A stretch of 39,722 nt of DNA. Source: Patescibacteria group bacterium. GTDB lineage: Bacteria; Patescibacteriota; Doudnabacteria; UBA920. The DNA lies in assembly GCA_028870105.1 (NCBI GenBank), contig JAGWQI010000001.1:1-39722 (forward strand). The letters run 5' to 3'. The notes below the pieces were generated by a model, which saw only the letters and a program-made list of their open reading frames with translations, did not search any database and was not told where the DNA came from. Of the stretch, positions 2,662 to 22,304 are shown in pieces. A program made the position numbers and the translations under genes. Each line of letters opens with the position of its first letter. Positions within the stretch are counted from its first letter, which is position 1.

Positions 2662-2681
2662 GGAAGTATTATAGCAAAAAA

Positions 2682-5762: not shown

Positions 5763-5906
5763 TTTGTGGCCGGGTAAATTAGAGCGCTCGGTTTAAATTG
5801 CAGGGGTCGCCGGCTTAAGCCCAGTTCTGCCCACCAGACATCGGGCCCAGCGGGCCGCTGCGGCGTGGACGCACAACTTGAATTCAAAACTTATCGAAGT
5901 ATTTTT

Positions 5907-6512: not shown

Positions 6513-6615
6513 AAGCTTATCATGGCAAGATTAAAAAAATAAAATTTTGATATTTCGCTCAAAGGCAGGGACCGAATATTTTTGCGACTTGATTTTTTAA
6601 TCTGACCTCATTTTT

Positions 6616-7908
6616 ATGGGCCGACACAAGAAAACCCAGACTGATGGCGCTTACACGCCAAAAAAGATCCCGGCTCTGGAAGGCGCGGCGGACGTGATTA
6701 CCGATTCTGATCCGCTTTGGGAAGCCGTGCTCAAACGCTTGGCTAATATCGGCAAGACTTATGGTTTTGCGAAAGTTGAGCCGCCACTTTTAGAAGATCA
6801 ATATTTATACCAAAGTTTTTACCGGCAGAACCAGCTGCCGCCGGAAGTTTTGGCGGTAAGCGGCCCGGCCCGGCCGGCGGCCTTGCGGCCGGCAATGCTG
6901 CCCGGCGTGTTGCGCGGATATTATCAGAACAAAATTTTTGACAAACTACCTTTAGCCAAGTGGCATTATGGCGGTTGGACTTATCGGGTCGACAAAAAAG
7001 GCTTGCTGACTTCTAATTTTGAATACGGCCTGGAGATTTTTGGCGGTTTTACCCATTTGGCCGAAGCGCAGCTGATTGGCGCGGTTTGGGAGCTTTTAGG
7101 TTCGCTGGGATTGAAGGATGTGGCTTTGGAAGTGAACAATATTGGCGAGCAGGCTTGCCAGCAGGCTTACCAGGATAGTCTGCGTGATTTTTTGCGCGGC
7201 AAAAAGTATGATTTGTGCGACAATTGTAACGAGTCGTTGCAGACGCGCCCGTTGAACGTGTTTCGCTGCGCCAATTTGGATTGCCAGTCGTTGTTGGCTG
7301 AAGCGCCGGCAATTTTGGATTTTTTGAGCGAAGCCTCGCACAAGCAGTTCACCAGCATGTTGGAAGCCTTGGACGAAATGGGGATCCCGTACCAACTTAA
7401 CCCCGTGTACGCGGGGGTGGAAGGCTGCGCCAAGACCAACTTTGTGTTCAAGTACAAGACCAAGGACGAAACTTACATTCTGGGAGAAGGGGGTAGCCAC
7501 GAAGGTTATATACAAACATTGTGCGGCAAGCCGCATAGTTGCTTTGGATTTGTTGGCAGCGCCAGCCTGCTGAGGCAGCTTCTGGAGCAGAACAAGGTTA
7601 GCGTGTCAAAAGAGCTCCATAGCGACGTGTTTTTGGTGCCGCTTGGCGAATTGGCTTCCAAGAAATCCTTGCGCCTGTTTCGTGATTTAACCACCCAGCG
7701 CATTGCGGTGCATGACCATTTTGGCCAGAGCGGCGTTAAAAACCAGCTCAAGGCCGCGCAAACCCAAAGCGCGCCGATTGCTTTGATTATGGGCCAAAAA
7801 GAGGCGATGGAGGAAATGGTCATTTTGCGCGACGTAAAAAGCGGGATGCAAGAAGTAATTTCTTATGATAAAATAGTAGACGAGGTTAAGAAACGGTTGG
7901 GCAAGTAG
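6616..7908 (+). CDS. Histidyl-tRNA synthetase-like protein (class IIa fold plus anticodon-binding domain) with divergent catalytic motifs
   Basis: LRPAMLPGVLRGY aligns with LRPEGT. The CDNCNESLQTRPLNVF insertion is HisRS-like. The C-terminus VFLVPLG...APIALIMGQKE...VILRDVKSGMQ is a typical class IIa anticodon-binding domain. Motif 2, motif 3 and the histidine-binding boxes look degenerate (see findings). Confidence 0.75.
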   Translation: MGRHKKTQTDGAYTPKKIPALEGAADVITDSDPLWEAVLKRLANIGKTYGFAKVEPPLLEDQYLYQSFYRQNQLPPEVLAVSGPARPAALRPAMLPGVLRGYYQNKIFDKLPLAKWHYGGWTYRVDKKGLLTSNFEYGLEIFGGFTHLAEAQLIGAVWELLGSLGLKDVALEVNNIGEQACQQAYQDSLRDFLRGKKYDLCDNCNESLQTRPLNVFRCANLDCQSLLAEAPAILDFLSEASHKQFTSMLEALDEMGIPYQLNPVYAGVEGCAKTNFVFKYKTKDETYILGEGGSHEGYIQTLCGKPHSCFGFVGSASLLRQLLEQNKVSVSKELHSDVFLVPLGELASKKSLRLFRDLTTQRIAVHDHFGQSGVKNQLKAAQTQSAPIALIMGQKEAMEEMVILRDVKSGMQEVISYDKIVDEVKKRLGK

Positions 7909-7951
7909 TTTGGCTTTACCCGAGAAAGCGTTATAAATTAGCATTAGCCAT

Positions 7952-8287
7952 ATGTCAGACTGCGTATTTTGCAACATTGTAAATAAAGTTCTGGCTTCCA
8001 ACATTTTGCTGGAAACCGAGGATTTAATTGTGATCAACGATATTTTGCCGAAAGCTCCCGTGCATATGCTGATTATTCCCAAGAAGCATATTTTGTCCAT
8101 TAATCATTTGGAGCCCGAGGATGCCGAACTTGGCGGCAAGCTCTTGGAGGCGGCTAAAGAGATGGCCAAGCGGCAGGGGATTTCTGAAAGCGGCTACCGT
8201 TTGGTGTTTAATGTCGGCAAGGACGGCGGCCAGGTTATTCCGCACCTGCACTTGCATTTGCTTGGCGGCAAAAAGTTTACCGATTAG
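7952..8287 (+). CDS. HIT-family (histidine triad) nucleotide hydrolase
   Basis: 111 aa with CVFCNI near the N-terminus and the HLHLHLLGG triad. Confidence 0.9.
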   Translation: MSDCVFCNIVNKVLASNILLETEDLIVINDILPKAPVHMLIIPKKHILSINHLEPEDAELGGKLLEAAKEMAKRQGISESGYRLVFNVGKDGGQVIPHLHLHLLGGKKFTD

Positions 8288-8495: not shown

Positions 8496-8735
8496 ATGGT
8501 AGAAGTCAAAAAGAAAGAAAACGAGTCGTTTGATTCCTTGCTGCGCCGCTTTAATCGCAAGATCCAGCAGAGCGGCGTTTTGGTGCGTGCCCGCAAAACC
8601 CGTTTTTTTGAACCGCCCAAGAGCCGCAATCTTCAAAAAGTTGCGGCCCGCCGTCGCGCCCAGATTCGTTCGCAAAAAGAAGAGCTTAAACGGTTGGGTA
8701 AACCCATGCCGCCTAAGCGATACGGCAGAAGGTAA
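8496..8735 (+). CDS. rpsU: 30S ribosomal protein S21
   Basis: MVEVKKKENESFDSLLRRFNRKIQQSGVLVRARKTRFFEPP. SD AGAGG lies 8 nt upstream of ATG 8496; the track start, GTG 8487, lies inside the SD. Confidence 0.9.
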   Translation: MVEVKKKENESFDSLLRRFNRKIQQSGVLVRARKTRFFEPPKSRNLQKVAARRRAQIRSQKEELKRLGKPMPPKRYGRR

Positions 8736-8843
8736 TCGGGATAATGAAAATGCAAAAGCCAAAATGAAAGATGTAAAGAGTCTCATTTGCCGCGACGCGT
8801 AGGCATTTAAATTTTGAGTTTTGACTTTAAACTTTAATTTTCC

Positions 8844-9296
8844 ATGCTTTCACTTCAGCAGATAGAATCCGACCTTAAGGACGCTTTAAAAGCGCGCGAC
8901 AGCTTGCGCGCCGATACTTTGCGTGGCTTGAAAACCCGCGTTCAGAATGAGCTAACTAAGGCCGGCAGCAAGCCGGGTCAGGATTTGTCTGAATCCGAAA
9001 TTTTCGCGCTGATCCGTTCGGAAATCAAGAAACGCCGGGATTCAGCTGAGGCTTTTAAGCAAGGTAACCGCCCTGAGCAGGCTAAGAAGGAAGAAGACGA
9101 GGCCGCGCTGCTGCAGCACTATTTGCCCGCGCAGATGCCCGAAGCGCAGTTGGCGCAGATTGTTGACCAGGCCATTGCCGACATGTCGGCTCTGCCCGCG
9201 GATTTTGGCAAGGTTATGGGCAAGCTGAAGGCGCAACTGGGCGATCAGGCCGACGGCGCCACGCTGTCGCGGCTATTAAGAGAACGCTTAAAGTAA
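8844..9296 (+). CDS. yqeY: GatB/YqeY domain protein
   Basis: 150 aa. The LKDALKARDSLRADTLRGLKTRVQNE opening and LLQHYLP...GKVMGKLK are typical of YqeY. Confidence 0.85.
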   Translation: MLSLQQIESDLKDALKARDSLRADTLRGLKTRVQNELTKAGSKPGQDLSESEIFALIRSEIKKRRDSAEAFKQGNRPEQAKKEEDEAALLQHYLPAQMPEAQLAQIVDQAIADMSALPADFGKVMGKLKAQLGDQADGATLSRLLRERLK

Positions 9297-9315
9297 GTCA
9301 AAACGGAAAAATCAA

Positions 9316-9376
9316 AATGCAAAATCACATGTTAAATTTTAAAAATGGCAACGCGTAATTATTTTGATTTTGCATT
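9316..9376. repeat. 12-bp perfect inverted repeat AATGCAAAATCA / TGATTTTGCATT (37-nt spacer) followed by a T-rich tract; possible long-loop terminator of yqeY
   Basis: Arms at 9316..9327 and 9365..9376, followed by GTCATTTTTATTTT. Confidence 0.6.
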
Positions 9377-9410
9377 GTCATTTTTATTTTGATAGTGAAT
9401 TTTAATTTTC

Positions 9411-10658
9411 ATGAGCAAGGAAACTTACATTGTCGGGTTAGACGTGGGTACAGCCAACATCCGCGCGGTGCAGGCCAAGCTGGAAGGCGAGACCGGGCGG
9501 TTTAACGTCATTGGCGCCAGCGAAGCGCCCAGCCAAGGCTTGCGGCGCGGCGTTATTGTGGATATTGAAGAGGCCGTTTCCAGCGTGGCCGTGGCTTTGG
9601 AAAATCTCGAGCGCATGACCGGCGTGCCGGTGGAGGCGGCTAACGTTAGCATTGGCGGCAACCACATTACTTCCGTGGCTTCCCACGGAGTTATTGCCGT
9701 CTCGAGGGCCGACGGCGAAATTATGGAAAGCGATATTGTCCGCGCCGTGGACGCTTCGCAGGTTATTTCCATTCCCAACAATCGCGAGGTGCTGCACGTG
9801 TTCCCAAAAAGTTTTATCCTCGACGGCCAAACTGGCATTAAGGATCCTTTGGGCATGAGCGGTATCCGCTTGGAGGTGGATACCTTAATTGTCCAGGCCG
9901 GCTTGCCGTTTGTTAAAAATCTGACTAAGGCCATTACTCAGGCGGGATTGGAAATTGAGGACTTGGTTTTGGCTCCGTGCGCCGCGGCTGAAGCGGTTTT
10001 GAGCAAACGCCAGCGCGAGCTGGGCGTGGCTCTGGTGGATTTGGGCGCGGGCACAACCAGCTTGGCGATTTACGAGGAAGGTGACTTGCTGCATACGGCC
10101 GTGATTCCCATTGGCCAGATGCACGTGACCAACGATATTGCCATTGGCCTGCGCTGCAGCATTGACACGGCGGAAAAAGTTAAATTGCTGTACGGCCATT
10201 GCGACGTTAAGGCCATTGACCGTGAAGAGGAGATTGACCTGTCCAAGCTCGATTCCAGCGAGGAGCAATCGGCCCTGCGCGGCTACGTGGTGGAAATAAT
10301 TGAGGCGCGGCTGGAAGAAATTTTTGATCGCGTGAACGCCGAGCTAAAAAAATCCGGCCGCGACGGCAAACTGCCGGCCGGGCTGGTTTTAACCGGCGGC
10401 GGCAGCAAACTGCCGGGCGCGGTGGAGTTTGCCAAAAAGCGCCTGCGCTTGCCGGCCGGGTTGGGTATGCCGCAAAACGTGACTACGGTCATTGACCGTG
10501 TGGATGACCCGGCCTTTGCCACGGCCGTGGGTTTGGTGTTGTGGGGTGGTAAGTTTTCAGCTGGCGGCGGCGACAAGCTGGCCAGCTTTATGTCCGGCTG
10601 GCTGCAAAAGGACAGCGTGGCGAAACTGCGCAAGTGGCTGAAATCCTTTTTGCCGTAG
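9411..10658 (+). CDS. ftsA: Cell division protein FtsA
   Basis: Actin-fold motifs VGLDVGTANIRAV, DLGAGTTSLAIY and LVLTGGGSKLPG. The C-terminal amphipathic tail is LRKWLKSFLP. Confidence 0.95.
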   Translation: MSKETYIVGLDVGTANIRAVQAKLEGETGRFNVIGASEAPSQGLRRGVIVDIEEAVSSVAVALENLERMTGVPVEAANVSIGGNHITSVASHGVIAVSRADGEIMESDIVRAVDASQVISIPNNREVLHVFPKSFILDGQTGIKDPLGMSGIRLEVDTLIVQAGLPFVKNLTKAITQAGLEIEDLVLAPCAAAEAVLSKRQRELGVALVDLGAGTTSLAIYEEGDLLHTAVIPIGQMHVTNDIAIGLRCSIDTAEKVKLLYGHCDVKAIDREEEIDLSKLDSSEEQSALRGYVVEIIEARLEEIFDRVNAELKKSGRDGKLPAGLVLTGGGSKLPGAVEFAKKRLRLPAGLGMPQNVTTVIDRVDDPAFATAVGLVLWGGKFSAGGGDKLASFMSGWLQKDSVAKLRKWLKSFLP

Positions 10659-10687
10659 GTTTACGGTCGGGAACGTAAAATAAATAT

Positions 10688-10712
10688 AGACGCCAGTAAG
10701 GCGTCTTTTTTC
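10688..10712 (+). terminator. Rho-independent terminator directly after ftsA
   Basis: AGACGCC-AGTAA-GGCGTCT followed by T6. Confidence 0.8.
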
Positions 10713-10783
10713 TTGGTATTAAGCCAAGTTTTTAGTTTGAGTGTTATTTTATGGCTTAAAAATAGTGCGTTTTAAGCCGAGTC

Positions 10784-10812
10784 TTGACATTTTCCAAAAA
10801 AGAGTGTATAGT
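10784..10812 (+). promoter_or_regulatory. Near-consensus promoter TTGACA-17-TATAGT for the ORFan block, abutted upstream by palindrome GGCTTAAAA-N8-TTTTAAGCC (10753..10778)
   Basis: TTGACA at 10784..10789 and TATAGT at 10807..10812. It carries the same GTCTTGACA word as the promoter at 1831..1839. Confidence 0.6.
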
Positions 10813-10899
10813 TATAGGTTATATTTAAAGCTCTAAACAGCCTTAAATATAGCAAGTACTTTGCAAAAATTAGGAGGATTTAAGCGTTATTTAGGAAGT

Positions 10900-10946
10900 G
10901 GTCATAGCAATAAGCCTGTAAAGTTTATAGGTTTGTTGCTATGACC
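10900..10946 (+). promoter_or_regulatory. 11-bp perfect leader hairpin whose 3' arm contains the start codon of the 393-aa gene
   Basis: GGTCATAGCAA (10900..10910) pairs with TTGCTATGACC (10936..10946); the ATG is at 10941. AGGAGG lies at 10872..10877 and AGGAAG at 10893..10898 upstream. Confidence 0.5.
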
Positions 10947-12122
10947 AACTTCAAAAGCACAATTTTTGCGGCGTGCCTCGCGGCCGCCATGTTCGTGTTT
11001 TTCGCCACCGCCGCTGTGGCCCAAACCCCGGTTCCGCAGGGATGTTTTCTGCTGCAGACCGGGCAGACTTTTTGCCCGGTCCAGCCGTCCGCTCCTACGC
11101 CCGCTCCGACCGCTACCTCATCCGCAGCGCAGCTGCGGACGGCGATTTCGGAGGCCCAGGATATTAACCGCCAACTTCAGGCTGTACAGCAGCCAGGAGT
11201 CCCGTGGCCGATGTTCTGGTCAATCGCCTTCATTATTGTGTTATTGGCGGTAATCGCGGGGATTTACGTGTGGTGGCTGTCACAGCACCACCCGACGATC
11301 CGGACGAGTATTCGTCCGGCTGACGGCCAGGCGCAGGTTAACTTTGTACCTGTGCTGCCGCCCCCGCCCGCACCCGCGCCTGCCCCGGCTCCCGCGCCGT
11401 TGCCTGCTGGCACTCCCGCGCCTGGCAACTGTGGCACGTGCGGTACCGCGTATCCGGCGGCCGCTCGTTTCTGCGCCGCTTGCGGCCGGGTGCTCCCGTT
11501 GGTTTTGTTCGCGCTGTTGCTGTTTGGTTTTAGCCATACGGCCATGGCGCAGCAGAACAATGAGGTACGCTATGCATGCGTGGTTAACGGCGTGCCGGGT
11601 TTCTGCTCGCAGCCTCCGGCTGCGACGCCTGCCCCGGCCTCCGCTCCCGCAGCGCCCGCGCCTCCGGCCCCCGCGCCGCGCCGCCACATTGCTGCCCCGG
11701 CCTCCGCTCCCGCAGCTTCCACGCCGCAGCAGCAGGTTGAGGCGATCACGAGAGGCGTGATCCAGGCCCTGCGCGAGCAGGGTGTGGTGGCGCCCGCGAC
11801 GTCTCCGAAGCCTACTGCCAGTTCTCTTTCTGAGGTGACTCAGGAAGTGGCGGACAGGATTTCTGCCGTGGAAACGCGGCAGAACATGATTACCAATCAG
11901 CAGAACATGATTGGTAATCGCCTCGGCGGTGTGGAAGCCGACCTTAAAAGGGTCGGCGACTACGCCAATAAGGTGGGGGAGCTTTCGGCGGCCACGGCCG
12001 CCGGGGCCATCCCCAAAATGTCCGAAAAGGGCGGGGGGAACAGCCCGGCTTGCCGGGCCTACCAGGCCCTGCAGGCTGTGGCGGGGGAGGTTAGTGGCCG
12101 CGCTCCGCGCGGCTGCAAATAA
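10941..12122 (+). CDS. Hypothetical Pro/Ala-rich envelope protein: signal peptide, TM, zinc ribbon, second TM, coiled-coil C-terminus
   Basis: - Signal-like N-terminus: MTNFKSTIFAACLAAAMFVFFATAAVAQ.
- First TM: MFWSIAFIIVLLAVIAGIYVWWL.
- Zinc ribbon: CGTC-x11-CAAC.
- Second hydrophobic segment: VLPLVLFALLLFGFSHTAMAQ.
- PAPAPAP linkers.
- No family recognised. Confidence 0.7.
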   Translation: MTNFKSTIFAACLAAAMFVFFATAAVAQTPVPQGCFLLQTGQTFCPVQPSAPTPAPTATSSAAQLRTAISEAQDINRQLQAVQQPGVPWPMFWSIAFIIVLLAVIAGIYVWWLSQHHPTIRTSIRPADGQAQVNFVPVLPPPPAPAPAPAPAPLPAGTPAPGNCGTCGTAYPAAARFCAACGRVLPLVLFALLLFGFSHTAMAQQNNEVRYACVVNGVPGFCSQPPAATPAPASAPAAPAPPAPAPRRHIAAPASAPAASTPQQQVEAITRGVIQALREQGVVAPATSPKPTASSLSEVTQEVADRISAVETRQNMITNQQNMIGNRLGGVEADLKRVGDYANKVGELSAATAAGAIPKMSEKGGGNSPACRAYQALQAVAGEVSGRAPRGCK

Positions 12123-12145
12123 CCCAAATAACGCTTCAGCAGTTT

Positions 12146-12204
12146 GGGGGAGAGGAACCTTAAAGGGATTGTTTACACACAATCCGCCTCTCCCCAAGTT
12201 TTTC
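12146..12204 (+). terminator. Two-tier hairpin plus T-run between the two envelope genes (terminator/attenuator-like)
   Basis: Outer stem GGGGAGAGG (12147..12155) / CCTCTCCCC (12187..12195). Inner stem GGATTGT (12166..12172) / ACAATCC (12179..12185). Followed by AAGTTTTTCC. Confidence 0.5.
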
Positions 12205-12209
12205 CAGGT

Positions 12210-12238
12210 TTGCCTTGGTTAAAGACAGCGGCTAAACT
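12210..12238 (+). promoter_or_regulatory. Weak candidate promoter TTGCCT-17-TAAACT
   Basis: Hexamers at 12210..12215 and 12233..12238. Sequence match only. Confidence 0.3.
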
Positions 12239-12279
12239 AGTTTGGCCTTTGTGTTTAAAAGGTAAAAGGAGGATACCAG

Positions 12280-12331
12280 ATCATCATAGCGGTAAGCGCG
12301 GCATTGTTGCTGTGTTTGCGGCTATGATGAT
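12280..12331 (+). promoter_or_regulatory. 11-bp perfect leader hairpin whose 3' arm contains the ATGATGATG start of the next gene
   Basis: ATCATCATAGC (12280..12290) pairs with GCTATGATGAT (12321..12331). AAGGAGG at 12266..12272 lies 7 nt 5' of the stem. Confidence 0.5.
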
Positions 12332-12998
12332 GCTAATTTTTGCATTGCTGTTTGGCGCCGTTTTGCCCGCTCAGACGCGGGCCGATGGCAAAGTGCGGTT
12401 TTTTATGCCGCGCGCGGACTCGCCCACTGCCATGCGGCGGTGCGGCAGCGACTTGGAGGCTCTCAAGAAATTGGGGAGCCTCCAACGTTACGTTTTTAGC
12501 GGGTCAGAACGCCTGACCGAGATGGCGTTCTGTGGAGCCACCGGCGGAATAGATCGCGTACACGTGTACGCGGTGCCGGCCGGCACCGTTGGCTGGCTCA
12601 AGCCAGACGGCTCGGGCCGCATCGTCCTGGAAGAGTGCGTCAATGACGCAATCTGTAAGGGCTGCGAATTACCTAAGCCGTTTGCGCCGGCCGCACCGCC
12701 GCCTGTGGAAGCGCCGCCGCCTACCCCGGCAGTCATGCTGTTGCCACCGCCTGAACCGGTGGCGCTTAATGACCTGCCGCCGGCGCCCGCGGCGTGGCAG
12801 CAGCCGGAAATTTCGGTCGAGCTCCTTTGGGAGATTGGCCGGAAGTTCCCGATTCCGTGCTATCCCCGCGAGCGGGGGTGGTACGGCACGGGGCTGCCGA
12901 TCGCCGAATGCGCTGCTGTTGGCGCCATCGCCTGGTGGCTGTGGCCGGCAGCAGCAGTGGTTGGCACCAAAGTACCGGTGCCGGTCATCACGCCGTAA
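12324..12998 (+). CDS. Hypothetical secreted/anchored Cys- and Pro-rich protein
   Basis: Start taken at MMMLIFALLFGAVLPAQTRA (signal-peptide-like) rather than the track start 12144, which would read through the terminator-like hairpin. It has a Pro-rich linker and a C-terminal hydrophobic segment AAVGAIAWWLWPAAAVVG. Confidence 0.65.
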   Translation: MMMLIFALLFGAVLPAQTRADGKVRFFMPRADSPTAMRRCGSDLEALKKLGSLQRYVFSGSERLTEMAFCGATGGIDRVHVYAVPAGTVGWLKPDGSGRIVLEECVNDAICKGCELPKPFAPAAPPPVEAPPPTPAVMLLPPPEPVALNDLPPAPAAWQQPEISVELLWEIGRKFPIPCYPRERGWYGTGLPIAECAAVGAIAWWLWPAAAVVGTKVPVPVITP

Positions 12999-13017
12999 AA
13001 GTCGGCAGCAAACGCTC

Positions 13018-13058
13018 AGCCGGGACGACTCACGTTGTCCCGGCTTTTCTTTTTTTTA
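13018..13058 (+). terminator. Rho-independent terminator
   Basis: AGCCGGGAC-N10-GTCCCGGCT followed by TTTTCTTTTTTTT. Confidence 0.8.
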
Positions 13059-13098
13059 TTTTTATGGTTAAATAAAAGCAAATAGATTTAAACATTTT

Positions 13099-15636
13099 AT
13101 GTCCGAAGAAACCAAAGAAAAAATCATTGACGTGAGTTTTAGCGCGGTAAAAGCGGGTGAGCCGGCTGAGGCCATAAATGCCCCGGAGACGGCCGAAGTA
13201 GAAACCGTGGCCCCAGAGCCTAAAGCGGAATCAAAAGTAAATGTTAAAGGCTTTCGGCGCCGGCGCCGGGCCAGAGTGAGCTCGACTTTAATTGATTACG
13301 GCGACTTTCGGGCCTTTGAGGCCACTAAGGAATTGGACATTCGGGGCAAAAAGGTCCAGGTGCCGGATTTCCGCATTATCGTCAATGACGAATTAATCAA
13401 CGAGCTGGTTAAGCGCCGGCTCTTGAAAAAGGAAGACCAGGCCGTTCCGGCAAAAATTGAGCAGGCCTTACGGCCGTTGCTGGACAAGGTGCTGCGCAAT
13501 AATTGGGATTTTGACCCCAAAGACTTGCGCGTGGAAGGCCGGGGCGACAACATGGAGCTGGTAATGCAAATGGATAAGCGCGATATGCGCGTGCCGTTTG
13601 CCGACGCCCGCATGGTCATGAAAAATGTTTTGGGGCAGGATAACGGCTACTTAAACGCGGCCTACGAGGCCCGCAAAAACCCCCGTTATTATCAAAAATT
13701 AAAAAAATATTGGAACGACGCCCAATTTCAGCAATTTAAAGACGACTTCCAGAATATTTCCAACCGTTCGCTTAAAACTTTGCAGGAAACCGTTTCAGCT
13801 GGAAAGAATTGGGAGGCGGAATATTTGGCGGCCAAGGAGCTGCTGGTCAAGGAGGGCGCGGCTGAAGGAACGGATTCGGCGAAATTAGACGGGGCGCGCG
13901 AACTGGTGCGGGCCGTGGAAGACGTGGTGCTGCAGGCTGGCGTGCCGAATTATCGCGACACGATTTTGCACCAAGCCTTGCTCGAACGGCTGAAAAATTA
14001 CGAACAAATCGCTAAGCGGGAGAACGAAGACTTGTTGACCAAGGTTTTGGCCGAGCCGGAAAGCTACCCCTGGAGCCGCCTGCAGAAGTTATTGGCCAAA
14101 GAGAGGCCTGAGGCCAAGGCGCAACTTTATTCCCAGCTGCTTAATTCCGCCGGAGTTTATCGGTCGTATAGGTGGGTGGAAGACAAAGCTTTTGTAAAGA
14201 ACGGGCAGGACCCGGAAAAGTGGCCGTTTCCGCTTAAGCGGCCGCGCAATTTTTTGTCCCTGTCCGCCAGGGCCGCGCTGGAAGTGCTGCAACGCCAGTC
14301 CCGGCAGCCGGAGTACGAATTGCCGCCGACGCGGTTTTTTGAGCAGGCGGTGGTAACAGAGTTCGCCGGCAGCGTCCCGGAGCTTAGGCCCGAGCAACAG
14401 CCGGCGGTTGTGATTCAGGAAGAAAGCGGTAAAGGGTTTTTGCGTTTGTACTTAAAGCACCCAAAAAAGGCCGACGAAACCAGGAGATTTTATTTGCCGA
14501 TTGGCGGCGGCGGGCTATTGCGGGCGCCGGAGCAGAATGACGCGCATAAATTTTACGAGGCGGGGCAGCATTTGTTTGAAGGGCGTAATAGTTTTAATTT
14601 GGCCATTACTTGGGAAGGCGGGGACGATAGCGACCCGGTGTTTTCGTTCGCGGCGCAAGGCTTAGGCGGCCAAGTTAAAAAGCGGCTTAGTGAGTTGCAG
14701 TCTAATTTGGATTTTGGCAGCTTGCTGGAAAGCAAAATTTGCGTTGCGGAGTTTTTGGCCTGGAAGAAACGCGAAAAAACCGAAGGGCGCGCGAAATTAG
14801 ACGAATCCGGCGCCTATAATCGGGAATTGACCACTGACCAGCGCAACCAAATAGGCCGCATGACCGGTATTTTATCCTACCGCGGCATTCCGTCTTTGGG
14901 CGAGCAGCTAATCGCCGAGCATATTAGTAAGGTTTTAAGTTTGGAATCGGATTTAACGAGGCAGGCATCCTTAAAACGCCGGGTTAAGATTGGCGGCGCT
15001 TTAAAGACCGAAGCTGCGGTTGCCGAACGGCAGCCGGTTTTGCCGGAAATCAAGTATTCCTCGGCGGAAACGGATTTTATTAAGGAATTGGTTTACAGCG
15101 AGGTTCCGTCCGGGTCGGATTTTATGTCGGCCAGCGAGCTGCAAACCGCGATTTTGGCTAAAGCCCAAGAATTTAAGTTGCAACCGGCGGCGCTGACCTT
15201 GAGGCTTTTGAAGTCTTTGGAAAATTTGCTGGCCGGGCAAAAGCAAATTTTGTCTCGCGGCATTGGTGATTTGGAATTAGCCAAACAATTTAAGCGCCAG
15301 GTTAAGTTAAGTCCGGAAGAGAGTTTGGAAATTTTGGTTAAGGGTTTGCGCGCGGCGCTGCGCGACATCGCGGTGTCCGGCGAGGTTTTACCTTCCGAGC
15401 GGGCTGTGGTGTTTGCCGAAAGCTTGGAACAGCAGGGATTGTCGTCACCGGAACTGCGGCGGTTTTGCGCCAGCCAGTACGACGTATTTATGGATCGAAC
15501 TGATCCGAGCAAGCCATTGGATTCCCGCGAAGCGAAGTTCCGGAATTTTTGGCAAAGCTTGGGGCAAAACATGGCTCAAAGGGCGGCGGTTAGCCGGCAA
15601 TTGGGCGGCGGTGAACAAACAAAACTAATCTCATGA
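13099..15636 (+). CDS. Hypothetical 845-aa soluble protein, no recognisable family
   Basis: Long uninterrupted ORF with ordinary amino-acid composition. It has an acidic N-terminus followed by an RRRRRAR run. No P-loop and no TM segment. Its stop overlaps the next start (ATGA). Confidence 0.85.
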   Translation: MSEETKEKIIDVSFSAVKAGEPAEAINAPETAEVETVAPEPKAESKVNVKGFRRRRRARVSSTLIDYGDFRAFEATKELDIRGKKVQVPDFRIIVNDELINELVKRRLLKKEDQAVPAKIEQALRPLLDKVLRNNWDFDPKDLRVEGRGDNMELVMQMDKRDMRVPFADARMVMKNVLGQDNGYLNAAYEARKNPRYYQKLKKYWNDAQFQQFKDDFQNISNRSLKTLQETVSAGKNWEAEYLAAKELLVKEGAAEGTDSAKLDGARELVRAVEDVVLQAGVPNYRDTILHQALLERLKNYEQIAKRENEDLLTKVLAEPESYPWSRLQKLLAKERPEAKAQLYSQLLNSAGVYRSYRWVEDKAFVKNGQDPEKWPFPLKRPRNFLSLSARAALEVLQRQSRQPEYELPPTRFFEQAVVTEFAGSVPELRPEQQPAVVIQEESGKGFLRLYLKHPKKADETRRFYLPIGGGGLLRAPEQNDAHKFYEAGQHLFEGRNSFNLAITWEGGDDSDPVFSFAAQGLGGQVKKRLSELQSNLDFGSLLESKICVAEFLAWKKREKTEGRAKLDESGAYNRELTTDQRNQIGRMTGILSYRGIPSLGEQLIAEHISKVLSLESDLTRQASLKRRVKIGGALKTEAAVAERQPVLPEIKYSSAETDFIKELVYSEVPSGSDFMSASELQTAILAKAQEFKLQPAALTLRLLKSLENLLAGQKQILSRGIGDLELAKQFKRQVKLSPEESLEILVKGLRAALRDIAVSGEVLPSERAVVFAESLEQQGLSSPELRRFCASQYDVFMDRTDPSKPLDSREAKFRNFWQSLGQNMAQRAAVSRQLGGGEQTKLIS

Positions 15637-16418
15637 ACGAAATCGAACTCAGACGGACCTTAGAAGAGCGGCAGCGGGAAGCTGCCGCGGCCATGGTGGG
15701 TGAAATGCAGACGCAAATGTCGGAATTGGCCGAAGCGCAAATGTTGGACGCTTGTATTGACTTAGCCAGGCAGGAGCTGTTACAATGCTCGGCTACCCCC
15801 CTAGGCGTTTATGAAGCTTTGCAAAAAGTCCATAAGAGCGCCGGTCCGGCGCAGCAGCTTGATAAGGATCGGCTGGAGGCGTTTAACCGGCGGTTAGCGG
15901 GAAATATTATTGAGTGGTTGGAGCGGGTGACTAATATCCAGGTGCGCTCGGCCCTGCAAGCGCGGACCGAGGCGGACCCAAAGACCAATGAGTGGAAAGA
16001 ATTTTATAAGATTACGGCCGAGGTCTTAACTAAAATGCGGGAGGTAAAACAAGAGCGGCCGGTTCCCGCCGCCTCGGATTTAGCAGATTTGGGGATTGCG
16101 CTAGAAGATGTTAAAGCCGAAGTAAAAATACCGGAGCCGGAAGCCGGCGTTGACGTTATTCCACCCGGGGGGTTTATAGACACAGTCGCGGAAGAGCCTA
16201 CTGCGGAAGAGCCGGAAAAGTTGCCGCTGTTTGTAAAAATTCTGGAAACGGCTAAAGAGAACGCGTTTGCCGATTTTATGTCCCGCAAGCAAGACCCGAA
16301 AAATCCGTTTCCGTTAGAGAAGCTAAGGCAAGTGTTTGAGTCCTTATGGGAGCTTGAAGAATATAAAGCCAAGGAGCAAATTTTGGAGGCTTTAAAAAAG
16401 GCCGGCGTAATTAAGTAA
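15633..16418 (+). CDS. Hypothetical 261-aa acidic protein
   Basis: ATGA overlap with the upstream gene (15633..15636) implies translational coupling. Glu-rich; no motifs recognised. Confidence 0.8.
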   Translation: MNEIELRRTLEERQREAAAAMVGEMQTQMSELAEAQMLDACIDLARQELLQCSATPLGVYEALQKVHKSAGPAQQLDKDRLEAFNRRLAGNIIEWLERVTNIQVRSALQARTEADPKTNEWKEFYKITAEVLTKMREVKQERPVPAASDLADLGIALEDVKAEVKIPEPEAGVDVIPPGGFIDTVAEEPTAEEPEKLPLFVKILETAKENAFADFMSRKQDPKNPFPLEKLRQVFESLWELEEYKAKEQILEALKKAGVIK

Positions 16419-16428
16419 ACATAATGTT

Positions 16429-18597
16429 ATGTCAGAAGAATTTGACAGAAAAGCGGCGGTCGCCGCTTCGTTAGAGCAGCATTTGTCAAAACTAAAGCAG
16501 CCTGATGCCCAGGCGGATTTATCTGTTCCAAGAATATCGCCAACACCCGAGGTGGAAAGACCCAAATCGTTCATTCCTGATGATCCTGAAGAAAGGCGAA
16601 TTTTGGCTGAAAAAAGGGAATCGGAATTGAAAGCTGCCCGCGAAGCTTATGTAAAAACTAAAAGGGATTTGGGCAAGTTTGGGGTCATTAAATCCGTTTG
16701 GGAAGCCTTAAAAGGAAAAGATACCAAGGAAAAAGTTAGGCTGGAACACGAGAAGGCCCAAAAAGAATACGATAAAAAGAAAGCGGAATATTACAAAGTC
16801 GCCACGGCTCAGTTTTTGCAGGAGCGCGATAAGCTGTTGGAAGAAGAAATTAAAAATCAGGCCCCAGGCAAAAGATGGCCCAAGAAAGCTTACGATTGGT
16901 ACAAGGGCCTGTCTAACAAGAACTTGGCTTTATTTGTGGAAAGGGTCCGGGGTAAGAAAATCGAGAACCGCTATGTTAAGGCCGGCTTGGGCATGGTTAA
17001 TCCGCGTACCGCGATTAGCCTTGGCTTGCTGGGTGGCGGCGTATATTTTGGCGCCACTGCGGCCGGCGTGGGTATTTTTACTGCCAGGAGGTTAGTTAGC
17101 GGAACCTCTGCCAGCGTGGGTACCTATGACTTGTTAAACCTGGCCAGAGGCGGCCGGGACCGGGTTAAGCTGGCTAAGGAAATTGATAAAATCGAGACGC
17201 TGGACGAGGTAGAGCAGCGGATGGCCCGCATTGAAGCCCGGGTAATGTTCGACGGCAAGACCTACGAAACCTTACAGGGGGACAGGCTTTACCAGCAGCT
17301 TAAATCTAAGCGCGCGGAAATATACGAGAAAAAAACCGCAGAGCAAGACACGGCCTGGAAGTTATCCCAATTTATAGGCGAGCGTTCCAAAAAGGACGAA
17401 GAGCAAATCGAAAAAAGCCTGGGCAAGGAAAAGAATTTCCGCAGGTTGGCTACGGCCACCGGCGCGGCTGTTGGCGCGGTTATTGGTACCGGCAAACTTA
17501 ATTGGCTTTATCGAAAATTAATGCCGGAGCACGCTTCGGCGGCCGCGCCAAAGGGTTTAGCCGGCCATCCTGAAGCCCCGGCGGAGTTTAAGCCGGCGAT
17601 GCCTCCGGTGCAGGACATTCAGCTGCACGCCGGCAGCCGCGGCATTGAGGGCGCGTTGCTGGATCTTAAAAAAACTAACGCTGAGTCTTACAATAAAATG
17701 CTGGCCTGGATGCAAAACCAGCCGGGGATTGGGCAGGACACGGCCGGACACCAAATTACCGACCCCGGCAAGCTGGTGCACCGTTTCGTGGACAAGTTCG
17801 CCCAAGAGCACAATTTTAACATTGACCAGGGCGGCGGGCATGATTTGAGCCGGATGTTTAAAGCCGACATGGCGGTTCACGCCGACGGCTCAGTGACGTT
17901 TAATACCTCGCCTGAGCATTTTCAGTTTATGCCCGAAAGCCATCACGCGGCTACCGCCGGCCAGCCGGATTTGCACCACGGGGACCTGTCTTCGCTAACG
18001 CCGGAGGAAATCCAAAAAATGGCGCACGACCAGATGCACGACTACTTAGTCCAGCATCCGCAGGAGACCGCTGAGTTAAAGCGCTTATTAAATCCGATTC
18101 AGCCGGATATTGCGCCGCCAACGCACGCCGTGCCAGCCCCTCCCAAGCTGCCGGATTCCGGGATTGCTTTTCCGCGCATGCACGAGCCGCCGGTGGATTT
18201 GCCGCCGCATCAAGATTACGGCTTCGGCGGTTATGACGCCCCAGTTCACGCCGCGGCCAGGCCGGAAATTGCCAGTGCCGCCGGCGAAGTCCTGTTGGCC
18301 AAGGCCACCGCGGCCAAGGATACGGCTAAGGCGCTCAAGCAAATTTTGCCAAAAGATCAGCTGCACAATTTTATGCATAAGGTGCTCGGCGTAAGCGACC
18401 GCAAGCTCAATGGTTTAAAGAATATGAGCGTGTTGGAATTTGCGGAAAAGGCCGAGGTTAATAAAAAATTCCAAAACGAATTTTCCAAATTGGGCAAATT
18501 GATTTTTGAAAAATCTACCCAAGCCGATTGGGACAGCGCGGAAAATTTGAGCGTGCGCCAGTGGCTGGTAAATTACGCTTTAAGAATTAAAAAATAA
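16429..18597 (+). CDS. Hypothetical 722-aa protein with a Lys/Glu coiled-coil N-terminus, two Gly-zipper hydrophobic segments and a His/Pro-rich C-terminal half
   Basis: Hydrophobic segments are AISLGLLGGGVYFGATAAGVGIF and LATATGAAVGAVIGTG. The gap to the upstream gene is 10 nt. Confidence 0.85.
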   Translation: MSEEFDRKAAVAASLEQHLSKLKQPDAQADLSVPRISPTPEVERPKSFIPDDPEERRILAEKRESELKAAREAYVKTKRDLGKFGVIKSVWEALKGKDTKEKVRLEHEKAQKEYDKKKAEYYKVATAQFLQERDKLLEEEIKNQAPGKRWPKKAYDWYKGLSNKNLALFVERVRGKKIENRYVKAGLGMVNPRTAISLGLLGGGVYFGATAAGVGIFTARRLVSGTSASVGTYDLLNLARGGRDRVKLAKEIDKIETLDEVEQRMARIEARVMFDGKTYETLQGDRLYQQLKSKRAEIYEKKTAEQDTAWKLSQFIGERSKKDEEQIEKSLGKEKNFRRLATATGAAVGAVIGTGKLNWLYRKLMPEHASAAAPKGLAGHPEAPAEFKPAMPPVQDIQLHAGSRGIEGALLDLKKTNAESYNKMLAWMQNQPGIGQDTAGHQITDPGKLVHRFVDKFAQEHNFNIDQGGGHDLSRMFKADMAVHADGSVTFNTSPEHFQFMPESHHAATAGQPDLHHGDLSSLTPEEIQKMAHDQMHDYLVQHPQETAELKRLLNPIQPDIAPPTHAVPAPPKLPDSGIAFPRMHEPPVDLPPHQDYGFGGYDAPVHAAARPEIASAAGEVLLAKATAAKDTAKALKQILPKDQLHNFMHKVLGVSDRKLNGLKNMSVLEFAEKAEVNKKFQNEFSKLGKLIFEKSTQADWDSAENLSVRQWLVNYALRIKK

Positions 18598-18600
18598 AAT

Positions 18601-18906
18601 ATGAATAGAAATATCCTCGAGGGTAATATTATCGCGCAGCTTGGCTTGGAAAAGCTGCCGGATGAAGAAAAGGCCGCTTTGCTGGAACAAATGGTCGGTT
18701 GGGTGGAGAAGCGGGTGTTCGGCAAAATTCTGGCGTCTTTGGCCGAGGCCGACAAAGCGCGGTTTTTGGAAATTATGGAAAGCGGCGACCAGGCGGCCTC
18801 GGAAGAGTTCTTGTCTCAGAAGGTTCCAAACTTCGCGGAGCTGCTAGAACAGGAAACCGCCGCCGCCAAGCAGGAGCTGGCTGAGTTTCATAAGACACTC
18901 GATTAG
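18601..18906 (+). CDS. Hypothetical 101-aa helical acidic protein
   Basis: Starts 3 nt after the upstream stop. The LPDEEKAALLEQMVGWVEKRVFGKILASL...DKARFLEIM pattern resembles small helical proteins I associate with Patescibacteria (possibly DUF5663-like; unverified). Confidence 0.75.
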   Translation: MNRNILEGNIIAQLGLEKLPDEEKAALLEQMVGWVEKRVFGKILASLAEADKARFLEIMESGDQAASEEFLSQKVPNFAELLEQETAAAKQELAEFHKTLD

Positions 18907-18925
18907 CCCCCTAAAGGCTGAAAAT

Positions 18926-18953
18926 TTGTCTAAAGCCGGCGGTATGCTATAAT
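18926..18953 (+). promoter_or_regulatory. ftsZ promoter TTGTCT-16-TGcTATAAT (extended -10)
   Basis: TTGTCT at 18926..18931, TGC at 18945..18947 and TATAAT at 18948..18953. Confidence 0.6.
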
Positions 18954-18984
18954 GCCCCTAGCTTAAAACCAAACACAAACACCA

Positions 18985-19030
18985 AATACAACCAAAATTC
19001 GGCTGCCTTTCCCCGGTTGTATTTTATTTT
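18985..19030 (+). promoter_or_regulatory. Terminator-like hairpin in the ftsZ leader
   Basis: AATACAACC (18985..18993) pairs with GGTTGTATT (19015..19023), followed by TTTATTTTG and preceded by a C/A-rich tract (18965..18998). Confidence 0.4.
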
Positions 19031-19082
19031 GCCTAAGCCTTGCACTCTTTTGATTAATTTTGTATTCTTTATTTAGCATTTC

Positions 19083-20270
19083 ATGAGCAAAAAAATGGAA
19101 GTTAAACCAAAAGTTGAGACCTTTGCCAGAATCAAAGTTTTGGGCATCGGCGGATCGGGCACTAACGCGGTTAACCGCATGTCGCAGCTGGGCATCCGCG
19201 GCGTGGAGTTTGTTTCGGTCAATACCGACGCGCAAGCCTTGCATAATAACCAGGCCGATCGCAAGGTTCATATTGGGCGCGGTGTAACCAAGGGCCTGGG
19301 CAGCGGCATGAACCCCGAGCTTGGCCGGCAGGCGGCCGAGGAAAGCGTGGAAGAGTTGGAAGAAGTCGTGGATAACGCCGACATGGTGTTTATTACTTGC
19401 GGCCTTGGCGGCGGCACCGGCACGGGAGCCGCACCGATTATCGCCGAGCTGGCGAAGAACAAAGGCATCCTAACCGTGGCGGTGGTCACTAAGCCATTCA
19501 CGTTCGAAGGCAGCAAGCGCAAGGAAGTGGCTGAGGTTGGTTATGACAATTTGAAAGATAAAGTTGACGCCATTATTTCCATCCACAACGACCGCATTTT
19601 GCAGATCATCGACAAGAAAACTTCTTTGGTCGACGCGTTTAAGACTGTGGACGAGGTTTTGCGGCAGGGGATTTCCGGCATCAGCGATTTGATTACCACC
19701 CACGGTATTGTTAACGCCGACTTTGCGGACGTGAGAAGCATTATGCAGGACGCCGGCACGGCGCTCATGGGCATTGGCCATGCCAGCGGCGATACCCGCG
19801 CCCAAGACGCGGCCCGTCTGGCTATTAATTCGCCGCTGCTGGAAATGACTATCGACGGCGCCAAGGGCGTGTTGTTCAACATTACTGGCGGTCCCTCTTT
19901 GGGCATGTTCGAGATTGACGAGGCGGCCAAGGTGATTACCAAGAGTATTGATCCGGATGCCAAGGTTAAGTTTGGCGCGGTCATCGACGAAAGCATGGGC
20001 GACGACATCCGCATTACCGTCATTGCCACGGGTTTCGACGAAGCCAACAAGCGGCCAATGCCGGCGGTACTGCCGACTCAGCAAGAACATAAAAAATCCG
20101 AACCGCGGCCGGTCCAGCCCGCGCCGGAAATGCGCAAACCGTTGTTTGCGCCGCAGCCGGTGGCGCCGGTTTCCCAGGCACCGCGGCCGGTCCAGCCCGC
20201 GCCGCAGCCGGACGCCGCGCCCGATGACGAACTGGATATTCCCGCGTTCATTCGCAAAAAGATGAAATAA
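19083..20270 (+). CDS. ftsZ: Cell division protein FtsZ
   Basis: [13 protein letters not shown], the [10 protein letters not shown] tubulin signature, NTDAQAL, and the C-terminal FtsA-binding peptide [13 protein letters not shown]. Confidence 0.97.
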
Positions 20271-20352: not shown

Positions 20353-20548
20353 ATATACAGATATTGAAAAGGTCGATATCGGCACAAAAACAAGCCGGTA
20401 AATATCGTCTAAGAAACAAAAAAGCAAACAAAAATAAAATTAAATACCTCCAAAATTATCGGCTCTTTCAATTGGAGAGCGGATATAAATTGGTTTAAAG
20501 TGGTTTTGCCATTTAAACCAACTTTCTAGAGTTTTGGAACAAAGCATT

Positions 20549-20974
20549 ATGGAAACTTTGTTAACTACAGAGAGCCCGGGCAAGGTTATTGGGCTACTTG
20601 GCGCGGCCATGTGCTCGTTGGTGTTTTTGCTGGCCGTAACGCTCAGCGACGCCAGCTTTAGCGGCCAGCAGCAAGTGCTGCCTGACCCGTTCGGCCCGCA
20701 GCAGGTTATGGCCGTGCTCGACCAGGCCAGCAACAGCTACAGCAAGCTGGCCGACGCTTATTTTATTAACCCGCTCATGAACAGTTATTCGTCCATGTAC
20801 CAAAGCGCGCAGAGCGCGGTGGCGTTTATGCGGGAGTCCGACGTTGACGTGCGCATTGTGGCCATGGCCGGACTGTCGGATTTAGTCTGGCAGGAGCCTA
20901 CGCCAATGGCGCATCCTTCGCATTTGGCGCCCGGCCAAGTGGCCGGCGCGTTCACTATGCACCAAGCGCCATAA
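20549..20974 (+). CDS. Hypothetical membrane-anchored protein
   Basis: METLLTTESPGKVIGLLGAAMCSLVFLLAVTL (one TM), then a soluble domain. ATG at 20549 is preferred to TTG at 20534. No family recognised. Confidence 0.55.
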   Translation: METLLTTESPGKVIGLLGAAMCSLVFLLAVTLSDASFSGQQQVLPDPFGPQQVMAVLDQASNSYSKLADAYFINPLMNSYSSMYQSAQSAVAFMRESDVDVRIVAMAGLSDLVWQEPTPMAHPSHLAPGQVAGAFTMHQAP

Positions 20975-21163: not shown

Positions 21164-21185
21164 AATGGTAGAGTGTGACCCAGGC

Positions 21186-22304
21186 TTACTCGCCGGGAGG
21201 AGGGAGTACCATATTGTTGTAAGGGCCGAAGACGGTTTGCCGCGGCCCTTCTTCCACCGTTCCGACGGGCAGCAGCGGATAGCCGGCCTTCTCGGCAACG
21301 TCCATGGTTTTTTGGACATTGCCGGGATCGACGAAGATGTACCAGCCGGCGCCCCAGTTGAAGGTTGTCAGGCAGGTGTCGAGCGGGACTTCGCAGACTT
21401 CGTGCATGACCCGAAACAGCAGAGGGATTTGGTCTTCAGTCCACCAGGTATGGATGCGGTAGGTCAGCGGGCGCTTGTCGAACGCCAGCTTGGCCACGCC
21501 GTCTCCCGTGCCCGGCAGGAATGCCGAAACTTGGACTTCGTTCTGTTGCAGCGCCTCGACCAGTTGCACGTACGAACGGGTGGGGATGAGCGCTTCTTCG
21601 CCCAGGGTCTTGCCGTTCGGCAATTTGGTCAAAAATTGTTCGGGCAGCCCCAGCGCTTTGCCGATGACCAGCGAGGCGCCGTTGCTGTGCAGGCCAGTCG
21701 AAGGCGCCGCCAGAATGACGTTGCGGGGTCTAAGTCGACTGCCGTTGACTTTGAAGCTTGCCGGGGAGATGATGCCGGTGGCGCAGCCGCTAAGCACGGG
21801 AGCGCTTTTAACCGGTTCAGTGGCGCGGATCAAGTAACGCAGCGAAGGCGATTCGCCACCGACCAGGGCCATGCCAGTTTCCTGGCAGACCCGGAAGTAG
21901 CTCTCGCCCAAGTCGTGTCGCCGGTTCGCGTCGTTGAACCACTCGCTGTCGCCAGCCGCCGCTTCGTCGGTGTAAATGATCGGCAGGGCGCCTTTGGCGG
22001 CCAAGTCATTGGCGGCCATCAGTGCGTTATCGATCCCGATGCCGGAGTAGTAGCTGTTCCCCGTGCCGGAGAACAGGTACATCCATTCCGCGATCCAGTT
22101 CTTGTTGCCCAGGCCTTCTGTGACCTGGCATAGCCGGTGGTCCTTAGACCACGTGCAGTAACTGCCGTCTGACTCGACGATCACTTGCCGGCGATTCGGG
22201 AAGGTCAGGGTTCGCAGTCCAATTTCGCGCATAAAGTCTTTGAAGGGCTGGATTTGTTTGTAATCCACCCCGCCGACCTCAGCATAAATGTTCACAACAG
22301 TCAC
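21186..22304 (-). CDS. PurM-like / AIR-synthase-superfamily protein
   Basis: Colinear with PurM as I remember it: VDYKQI; TEGLGNK (cf. DGVGTK); GIDNALMAANDL (cf. GIDLVAMCVNDL); LVGGES (cf. GGETAEM); STGLHSNGASL (cf. SSGPHSNGYSL); PTRSYV; TFNWGAGW (cf. TFNCGVGM). Start is GTG at 22304, or GTG at 22295 behind GAGGTG. Confidence 0.8.
   Translation of the reverse strand: MTVVNIYAEVGGVDYKQIQPFKDFMREIGLRTLTFPNRRQVIVESDGSYCTWSKDHRLCQVTEGLGNKNWIAEWMYLFSGTGNSYYSGIGIDNALMAANDLAAKGALPIIYTDEAAAGDSEWFNDANRRHDLGESYFRVCQETGMALVGGESPSLRYLIRATEPVKSAPVLSGCATGIISPASFKVNGSRLRPRNVILAAPSTGLHSNGASLVIGKALGLPEQFLTKLPNGKTLGEEALIPTRSYVQLVEALQQNEVQVSAFLPGTGDGVAKLAFDKRPLTYRIHTWWTEDQIPLLFRVMHEVCEVPLDTCLTTFNWGAGWYIFVDPGNVQKTMDVAEKAGYPLLPVGTVEEGPRQTVFGPYNNMVLPPPGE

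Follow-up and report, generated by a model that had tools for sequence, protein, structure and literature searches.

A four-gene operon in a hypervariable ftsA-ftsZ island of Doudnabacteria is probably a fast-evolving, membrane-associated accessory module

Four tightly packed genes lie immediately upstream of ftsZ in a 39,722-nucleotide (nt) stretch of a Doudnabacteria genome (assembly GCA_028870105.1, contig JAGWQI010000001.1, positions 1 to 39,722; hereafter the window), inside a variable island that separates ftsA from ftsZ. The genes, here called P1 to P4, are all on the forward strand and encode proteins of 845, 261, 722 and 101 amino acids (aa): P1 at 13099-15636, P2 at 15633-16418, P3 at 16429-18597 and P4 at 18601-18906, with 176 nt between the end of P4 and the start of ftsZ. 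Their sizes and all three junctions are as given in a preliminary description of this DNA: read from the sequence, the P2 start overlaps the P1 stop in an ATGA (15633-15636), P2 and P3 are 10 nt apart, and P4 starts 3 nt past the P3 stop. For comparison, 80 species genomes were taken from an FtsZ genome scan (64-85% FtsZ identity; those with an informative label are Candidatus Doudnabacteria), each covered for 10 kb on either side of ftsZ, which with the window gives 81 loci. Across these loci, gaps of 10 nt or less account for 22% of the same-strand gaps in crude gene calls, so three consecutive gaps of this kind would be expected about 1% of the time. The junction style of P1, P2 and P3 is repeated in a short contig, L082, described below. 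P1 to P4 form a genuine, translationally coupled operon. The earlier remark that none of the four genes has a Shine-Dalgarno (SD) motif is true, but it describes a genome-wide trait and not a property of the operon: an SD-like motif precedes only 1 of the 38 window genes of at least 100 aa, and this organism evidently starts translation without depending on SD pairing.

P1 (isoelectric point, pI, 8.9) has the character of a soluble protein, with an acidic N-terminus followed by RRRRRAR from residue 53, and a hydropathy scan found no hydrophobic segment in it. P2 (pI 4.9) and P4 (pI 4.6) are acidic, as had been stated, and P4 is helical. A Walker A motif was found in none of the four proteins, in agreement with the earlier view that P1 lacks a nucleotide-binding loop. 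The gene calls rest on the list of open reading frames (ORFs) and on homologues: P0005 and P0006 for P1, a gene of L082 for P2, and P0003 and another gene of L082 for P3. P4 matches the Pfam family DUF5663 (PF18908) with an E-value of 3.7e-11 and 43.9 bits against a gathering cut-off of 23.7, over profile positions 1-79 of 84, that is, above the gathering score over most of the profile.

P3 is helical and rich in Lys and Glu, and it contains two hydrophobic segments rich in Gly and Ala, GLLGGGVYFGATAAGVG at residue 199 (17023-17073) and ATGAAVGAVIGTG at residue 343 (17455-17493). Both fall within a conserved module (residues ~88-393; 16690-17607) that, by hhalign, is common to the giant island proteins discussed below. 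The module is followed by a small alpha/beta mid-domain (residues 395-503; 17611-17937), which is kept as a BLASTP block in P0003 and is the sole part of an AlphaFold2 (AF2) model to reach a predicted local distance difference test score (pLDDT) of 60-80. Next come a His/Pro-rich, low-complexity linker (residues 504-613; 17938-18267), delimited by composition in 50-aa blocks and not conserved in P0003, and a C-terminal helical domain (residues 614-722; 18268-18594) that is conserved with P0003. The sequence motifs quoted in the preliminary description are all present, RRRRRAR in P1 and the two Gly-rich segments and the His/Pro-rich stretch in P3. The last of these (residues 505-575) had been taken for a tail, and is actually an internal linker, with the helical domain kept in P0003 coming after it. 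P3 had likewise been called membrane-inserted. The Gly-rich segments on which this was based do exist, but they are weakly hydrophobic, with a maximum Kyte-Doolittle value of 1.46 over 19 aa, and membrane insertion is best described as plausible.

P1 to P3 are co-inherited but extremely rare. A full HMMER pass over 1.84 billion representative proteins retrieved two homologues of P1, namely P0005, with 844 aa and 34% identity over the full length, and P0006, a fragment from the C-terminus with 55% identity. On L082, a P1 C-terminus is followed by a P2 homologue (775-1527, 33% identity), which overlaps the P1 stop in an ATGA, and, 3 nt further on, by a P3 homologue (1531-3021, 31% identity) that ends at the contig edge. 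A second short contig, L081, carries a PR2-like gene (PR2 is an island gene upstream of P1) and a P1 homologue, with a P2-like start 9 nt on that reads MGETNLELR against MNEIELRRT in P2 of the window. P3 has one distant homologue elsewhere, P0003 (811 aa), at 25% identity in two blocks. The gene order on its 142-kb contig is SecG, SBP_bac_5, a 304-aa gene, a 674-aa gene, P0003, a 99-aa DUF5663 gene, RNase J and TrpRS. The DUF5663 gene adjoining P0003 beside RNase J indicates that the pair of a P3-type gene followed by a DUF5663 gene is kept far from any ftsZ. Labelling the four genes ORFans was therefore partly right, in that P1 to P3 have few remote homologues, while P4 belongs to a Pfam family. 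Treating them as one set fared similarly: the order and junctions of P1, P2 and P3 recur in L082 and L081, as expected of a co-inherited module, but the association with ftsZ did not hold, as tblastn and phmmer found no relative of P1, P2 or P3 within 10 kb of ftsZ in the 80 species genomes.

The left flank of the island is ftsA (9411-10658, forward strand; Pfam FtsA, E = 1.5e-33; SHS2_FTSA, E = 1.5e-27), which the preliminary description did not mention, and the right flank is ftsZ (19083-20270, forward strand; TIGR00065, E = 6e-123). These usual neighbors are here 8.4 kb apart, and the interval between them (10659-19082) is variable when compared with relatives. Among the more distant Doudnabacteria (~43 outgroup species with upstream sequence), ftsA and ftsZ are separated by only 23-211 nt. 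In a neighbor-joining tree of FtsZ, the loci with a displaced ftsA fall into a single 37-leaf clade that includes the window. Within this clade, the spacer still measures only 187-424 nt in three species (L063, L005, L016), and the island 5.4 and 7.2 kb in two more. For most of the rest, no ftsA was found in the upstream sequence covered, which generally reaches 10 kb but is truncated at a few loci and uninformative at two. Gene order is conserved in the flanks, HisRS-HIT-YqeY-FtsA on one side and FtsZ-ORF146-NrdR-RNR on the other, and the content between them differs, with several unrelated cargo sets. With its constant flanks, its varied cargo and an interval ranging from 0.2 kb to more than 10 kb, the site is a hypervariable chromosomal region. 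A hypervariable island that splits ftsA from ftsZ in one Doudnabacteria clade is a new finding, modest but concrete.

The commonest island layout consists of PR1 and PR2 (Pro/Ala-rich membrane-protein genes), an unknown protein of 370-570 aa, a gene of ~105 aa, a giant of 1358-1781 aa (GIANT21, 19 loci) and then ftsZ. An alternative layout has a 970-1049-aa protein, GIANT42, followed by the ~105-aa gene. In 10 loci, a protein of 302-561 aa with a C-terminal T4SS_pilin domain (PF18895; T4SS, type IV secretion system) is encoded in the opposite orientation just ahead of ftsZ (e.g., 8522-9655, reverse strand, in L002). In L018, L021, L023, L024 and L028, the gene pair directly upstream of ftsZ is an MNT (Polbeta nucleotidyltransferase) and HepT toxin-antitoxin pair. 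L006 has a 1098-aa protein with a SpoIIE/PP2C phosphatase domain (4785-8081), then genes of 379 and 92 aa, which together replace the pair of giant and DUF5663 gene. The pilin-domain, toxin-antitoxin and phosphatase genes of these relatives are typical cargo of accessory regions. L003, the sister of the window on the FtsZ tree, shows the GIANT21 layout; the P1-P3 cargo therefore occurs in no other sampled species.

DUF5663 genes recur throughout this island. A hidden Markov model built from the ~100-aa genes of the 81 loci detected 18 DUF5663-like genes, P4 included, and all 18 are inside the island. For seventeen of them, a gene for a large protein with Gly/Ala-rich hydrophobic segments or, once, a remnant of such a gene is no more than 70 nt away. 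The small gene stands upstream of GIANT21, with gaps of 1-69 nt, and downstream of GIANT42, with gaps of 5-17 nt; in the window it is downstream of P3. The closest relative of P4 (46% identity) is at 9473-9778 in L019, where it is likewise the last gene before ftsZ; both this gene (9473-9775) and the gene 3' of P0003 match DUF5663 itself. In L019 (8865-9778) it overlaps by 4 nt a 203-aa gene whose C-terminal half resembles P3 residues 55-143 (E = 6e-6), and which may be a truncated P3-type gene. The remaining DUF5663-like gene, in L021, is located between a 463-aa protein and a T4SS_pilin-domain protein. DUF5663 has no assigned function, and we found no mention of it in the literature consulted; its sub-threshold similarities to MgtE_N (Pfam, E = 0.008) and FliG (PDB search, E = 0.04) are a hint of a helical protein-binding fold, nothing more. 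As far as we have checked, its pairing with large Gly-rich-segment proteins has apparently not been described before.

We then compared the rare proteins of the window with those of the island at the level of profiles. The P3 family (alignment A2) matches GIANT21 with an hhalign probability of 90.5% (E = 1.4e-6, 267 columns), and the alignment spans both Gly-rich segments plus the intervening helix; the reversed-sequence control gave a probability of 4.5%. GIANT21 in turn matches GIANT42 (probability 75%), and A2 against GIANT42 reaches only 17.6%. By profile similarity above the reversed control, GIANT21, GIANT42 and P3 make up a superfamily of helical proteins with Gly-rich segments, as defined here. 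Of some 20 island families compared with P1 and P2 by hhalign, a single one matched P1 and none matched P2. The match is between the P1 family (alignment A3) and family s70 of L010 and L028 (probability 84%, E = 7e-6, 446 columns, 23% identity; reversed-sequence control, 0.3%), with the common motifs NNWDFDPKD/NNFDLNPKE and GIPSLGEQLI/GLPSLTEQLV. The s70 gene is directly upstream of the DUF5663-GIANT21 pair in L028 and directly downstream of the GIANT21 gene in L010. P1 and P3 thus appear to be extreme divergents of families that recur in the ftsA-ftsZ island, and P2 is specific to the P1-P3 subtype of the module.

The island proteins diverge far faster than their neighbors. Among 11 genomes, FtsZ and RNR (ribonucleotide reductase) are ~80% identical, GIANT21 is 31% identical and its DUF5663 partner 36%. 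The ORFan appearance of the island proteins is due to this rapid divergence. P1 to P3 have a GC content of 0.51-0.53 and a third-position GC content of 0.57-0.62, against core ranges of 0.517 ± 0.037 and 0.616 ± 0.055, respectively. The marks of a classical mobile island or prophage were not found, neither an integrase or transposase nor an atypical composition, and no att-like or flanking repeats were detected around the island or the operon; the only tRNA lies at 5686. Given the native composition and the lack of an integrase, a nearby tRNA and repeats, the operon has the look of a native, long-established resident rather than a newly arrived mobile element.

The operon is bounded by transcription signals that separate it from ftsZ. 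A hairpin resembling an intrinsic terminator (13018-13045, forward strand; 12 pairs plus a T-run) ends the preceding PR1-PR2 unit and marks the upstream edge of P1-P4. Downstream of P4, ftsZ has a promoter at 18926-18953 (forward strand), made up of TTGTCT, 16 nt and TATAAT with a TG extension. Its core, TGCTATAATG (an extended -10 element), recurs in the short spacers between ftsA and ftsZ at the island-free loci L005 and L016; the element before ftsZ is kept with and without the island, and is duplicated in L005. With a strong terminator upstream and a conserved promoter belonging to ftsZ itself, the transcription signals of the operon and of ftsZ are independent, and the operon would not be co-transcribed with ftsZ by design.

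Searches for function returned little. Among the four proteins, the DUF5663 match of P4 was the sole result from Pfam, NCBIfam, PHROGs and PADLOC; PADLOC had no hit for any of them, and nothing assigns them to anti-phage defence or to toxin-antitoxin systems, the MNT/HepT pairs being confined to the islands of relatives. The same four collections gave no functional match for P0005, the P2 and P3 homologues of L082, P0003, or the neighbors in L019, the L019 and P0003 neighbors being DUF5663. Among the giants and other island neighbors (Pfam and PHROGs), the useful hits were the SpoIIE/PP2C domain of the one L006 protein, T4SS_pilin (family f25) and MNT/HepT. Sequence and profile searches of the PDB with P1, P4 and the alignments A1, A3, A4 and A5 found nothing significant, and Foldseek searches of the PDB with the low-confidence AF2 models of P1 and P3 gave no hit better than E = 0.2. 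A word-indexed search of 5.8 billion proteins found no homologue of P1 or P4 beyond the queries themselves and one of P3; as it missed the L082 homologue of P3, its negatives are soft. A genome-contig scan with the P3 alignment and two metagenome scans found nothing.

Taken together, these observations make it probable that P1-P4 is the form taken in the window by a fast-evolving, membrane-associated accessory module that occupies the ftsA-ftsZ island in one Doudnabacteria clade and does not belong to the core divisome. The recurring core of this module pairs a gene for a small, acidic, helical DUF5663 protein with one, a few nucleotides away, for a large helical protein with two or three Gly/Ala-rich hydrophobic segments. 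The large protein is P3 in the window and a giant of 970-1781 aa in relatives, and a large soluble protein of the P1 type is often alongside. In such a module, P3 would associate with the membrane through its Gly-rich segments, the DUF5663 protein could act as its co-translated partner or chaperone-like adaptor, and P1 and P2 would be soluble partners in the cytoplasm. The assembly may serve a lineage-specific envelope or cell-contact function that diversifies rapidly; its position beside ftsZ would then be historical, reflecting the site of the island, with the assembly itself outside the core divisome. A lineage-specific role in the envelope, in contact or in conflict fits the speed of divergence, the cassette-like replacement of cargo and the presence of pilin-domain and toxin-antitoxin genes in the island of relatives.

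The island resembles hypervariable regions of other Patescibacteria, a group generally considered host-dependent, in which hypervariable arrays of VirB2-like pilins are known (PMC12102498). Like those regions, it has conserved flanks and variable, fast-diverging, mostly unannotated cargo, and the copies in relatives contain T4SS_pilin-domain genes and toxin-antitoxin pairs. Unlike them, it sits between the normally adjacent ftsA and ftsZ, has no integrase, tRNA, att repeat or compositional anomaly, and in the window carries cargo without a pilin hit.

Several points weigh against an accessory module of this kind. No homology, profile or fold search gives a functional anchor for P1-P4, and the AF2 models are poor (mean pLDDT 41.8 for P3 from a 2-sequence alignment and 50.1 for P1 from 3 sequences). 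The profiles behind the remote links between families (probability 84-90%) are shallow, with 2-3 sequences. As noted above, the hydrophobicity of the Gly-rich segments in P3 is marginal, and none of P1-P4 has an N-terminus like a signal peptide, so surface exposure is at most a possibility. The context of DUF5663 outside the island-bearing clade has been seen once, on the P0003 contig. Moreover, the island stays at the ftsA-ftsZ site in ~30 species, and this could still hide a functional tie to division.

A bolder form of the same idea, which we offer as speculation and consider rather unlikely, is that the DUF5663 protein, the large Gly-zipper helical protein and the P1-type partners constitute an unrecognised, Patescibacteria-specific apparatus for membrane activity or host contact, or an effector-chaperone system. 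It would diversify at the pace of an arms race and be located exactly between ftsA and ftsZ, a site that might allow its products to be synthesised at, or close to, the place where an episymbiont divides.

The second component of that proposal can be taken in its own right. P3 and the giants might be membrane-active effectors that are sent to the membrane of a host or competitor, for example through the Patescibacteria T4SS or another non-Sec route, with DUF5663 keeping the Gly-zipper segments soluble. Such a role would be similar to that of class II type III chaperones and of the Lap partners of LXG toxins. The translational coupling of the small, acidic and helical DUF5663 protein to a much larger partner with Gly-rich hydrophobic segments is in line with this proposal, as is the lack of a Sec signal peptide-like N-terminus in P1-P4. 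The extreme divergence and the replacement of whole cassettes are what one would expect of an arms-race gene. T4SS_pilin-domain proteins are found in the same island in 10 relatives, and hypervariable arrays of VirB2-like pilins are on record for Patescibacteria (PMC12102498). However, Pfam, NCBIfam, PHROGs and PADLOC revealed no domain of a toxin, an immunity protein or a secretion signal, the window has no T4SS ATPase or channel gene, and its own island has no T4SS_pilin hit. We regard exported effectors as unlikely, and the analyses made do not separate them from the accessory module.

A role in division, as favored in the preliminary description, is quite unlikely. It would make P1-P4 a membrane-tethered division or cytoskeletal accessory complex, in which P3 tethers or regulates the Z-ring much as EzrA or ZipA does and P1, P2 and P4 are its partners. 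The operon does lie between ftsA and ftsZ, its packing is tight and conserved, and the island with its DUF5663 and giant pair keeps its position in ~30 species of the clade. P3 is also long and helical with possible membrane segments, and shares these features and a gene near ftsZ with EzrA, ZipA and SepF. It has no sequence match to these proteins, however, and differs from them in its separate transcription, its much faster divergence and its lack of conservation alongside ftsZ. The division families EzrA, ZipA, SepF, ZapA-D and FtsA-like gave no Pfam or NCBIfam match for P1-P4 at E-values up to 1. In ~46 species in all, comprising the outgroup and the three in-clade species with short spacers, ftsA abuts ftsZ, and the P0003 module sits between the SBP_bac_5 side and RNase J, not near ftsZ. 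The independent transcription signals also argue against a shared role. At ~31-36% identity, against ~80% for FtsZ, the island proteins hardly behave as one would expect of stoichiometric partners in a conserved divisome. The preliminary description had itself held that a lack of linkage to ftsZ would speak against this role, and since P1-P3 are not found at the ftsZ loci of the 80 relatives, a division complex is largely refuted by its own standard.

The remnant of a phage tail or tailocin, with the giant as tape measure protein, DUF5663 as its assembly chaperone and P3-P4 as a decayed copy, has an architectural resemblance in its favor, as an acidic gene of ~105 aa precedes, by 1-69 nt, the gene for a helical protein of 1358-1781 aa with central Gly-rich hydrophobic segments, and the giant of L001 matches an uncharacterised PHROG of 1183 positions (E = 1.4e-6). 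It is nevertheless highly improbable, given that P1-P4, five giants and two neighbors gave no significant PHROG match to tape-measure, tail, portal, capsid or integrase families, that P1 and P3 had no match in 50,697 phage records (tblastn) or in IMG/VR (family-alignment pattern scans), that no tail genes are adjacent, that in the window and beside GIANT42 the DUF5663 gene follows the large gene, the reverse of the expected order, and that the island has native composition and no att-like repeats.

Adjacency to ftsZ is a weak functional clue in this Doudnabacteria clade, in which the normally tight ftsA-ftsZ pair is split. DUF5663 gains its first reproducible genomic context, that is, coupling to very large and very fast-evolving proteins with Gly-rich segments. 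Fast-evolving giants in obligate episymbionts are prime candidates for host interaction, and the pair of DUF5663 protein and giant is therefore a reasonable target once a relative is cultivated. We infer the mechanism only, and the practical weight of these findings is moderate.

The other island genes of the window are PR1 (10941-12122) and PR2 (12144-12998), both on the forward strand and both with transmembrane-like segments; PR1 also has a zinc-ribbon hit. Judging from the flanking signals, they are a transcription unit of their own inside the island, preceded by a promoter-like site at 10784-10812 (11 of 12 matches) and a terminator-like hairpin past ftsA (10688-10706), and closed by the terminator upstream of P1. 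Homologues of PR1 and PR2 occupy the same relative place in L009, L015, L022, L029 and L067, and neither protein is related to the T4SS_pilin family f25. Both genes are 61-65% GC, owing to codon position 2, and contain periodic repeats of the PAPAP type every 12-15 nt. Long antisense ORFs over them (e.g., 11280-12197, reverse strand) look like by-products of these GC-rich repeats.

Apart from the island, the window is a housekeeping stretch that encodes DprA, EngA, LytR, signal peptidase, HisRS, HIT, YqeY, FtsA, FtsZ, NrdR, RNR, ComEC and RelA/SpoT. At 20534-20974, 3' of ftsZ, a 146-aa gene with one transmembrane-like segment and no Pfam hit was found by tblastn in 36 loci, nearly all of which belong to the island-bearing clade, with ~41% identity against 80% for FtsZ; it appears to be another fast-evolving, clade-specific neighbor of ftsZ. 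The segment 22682-28029 brings together NrdR, an 881-aa RNR with a TSCPD domain, a CobA/BtuR corrinoid adenosyltransferase, DUF4430 and DUF6580, and looks like a set for B12-dependent RNR and cobalamin salvage or uptake. A 322-aa ORF at 21165-22133 (forward strand) is almost entirely antisense to an AIR-synthase-related gene (21186-22304, reverse strand), which bears the Pfam hits, and is probably spurious.

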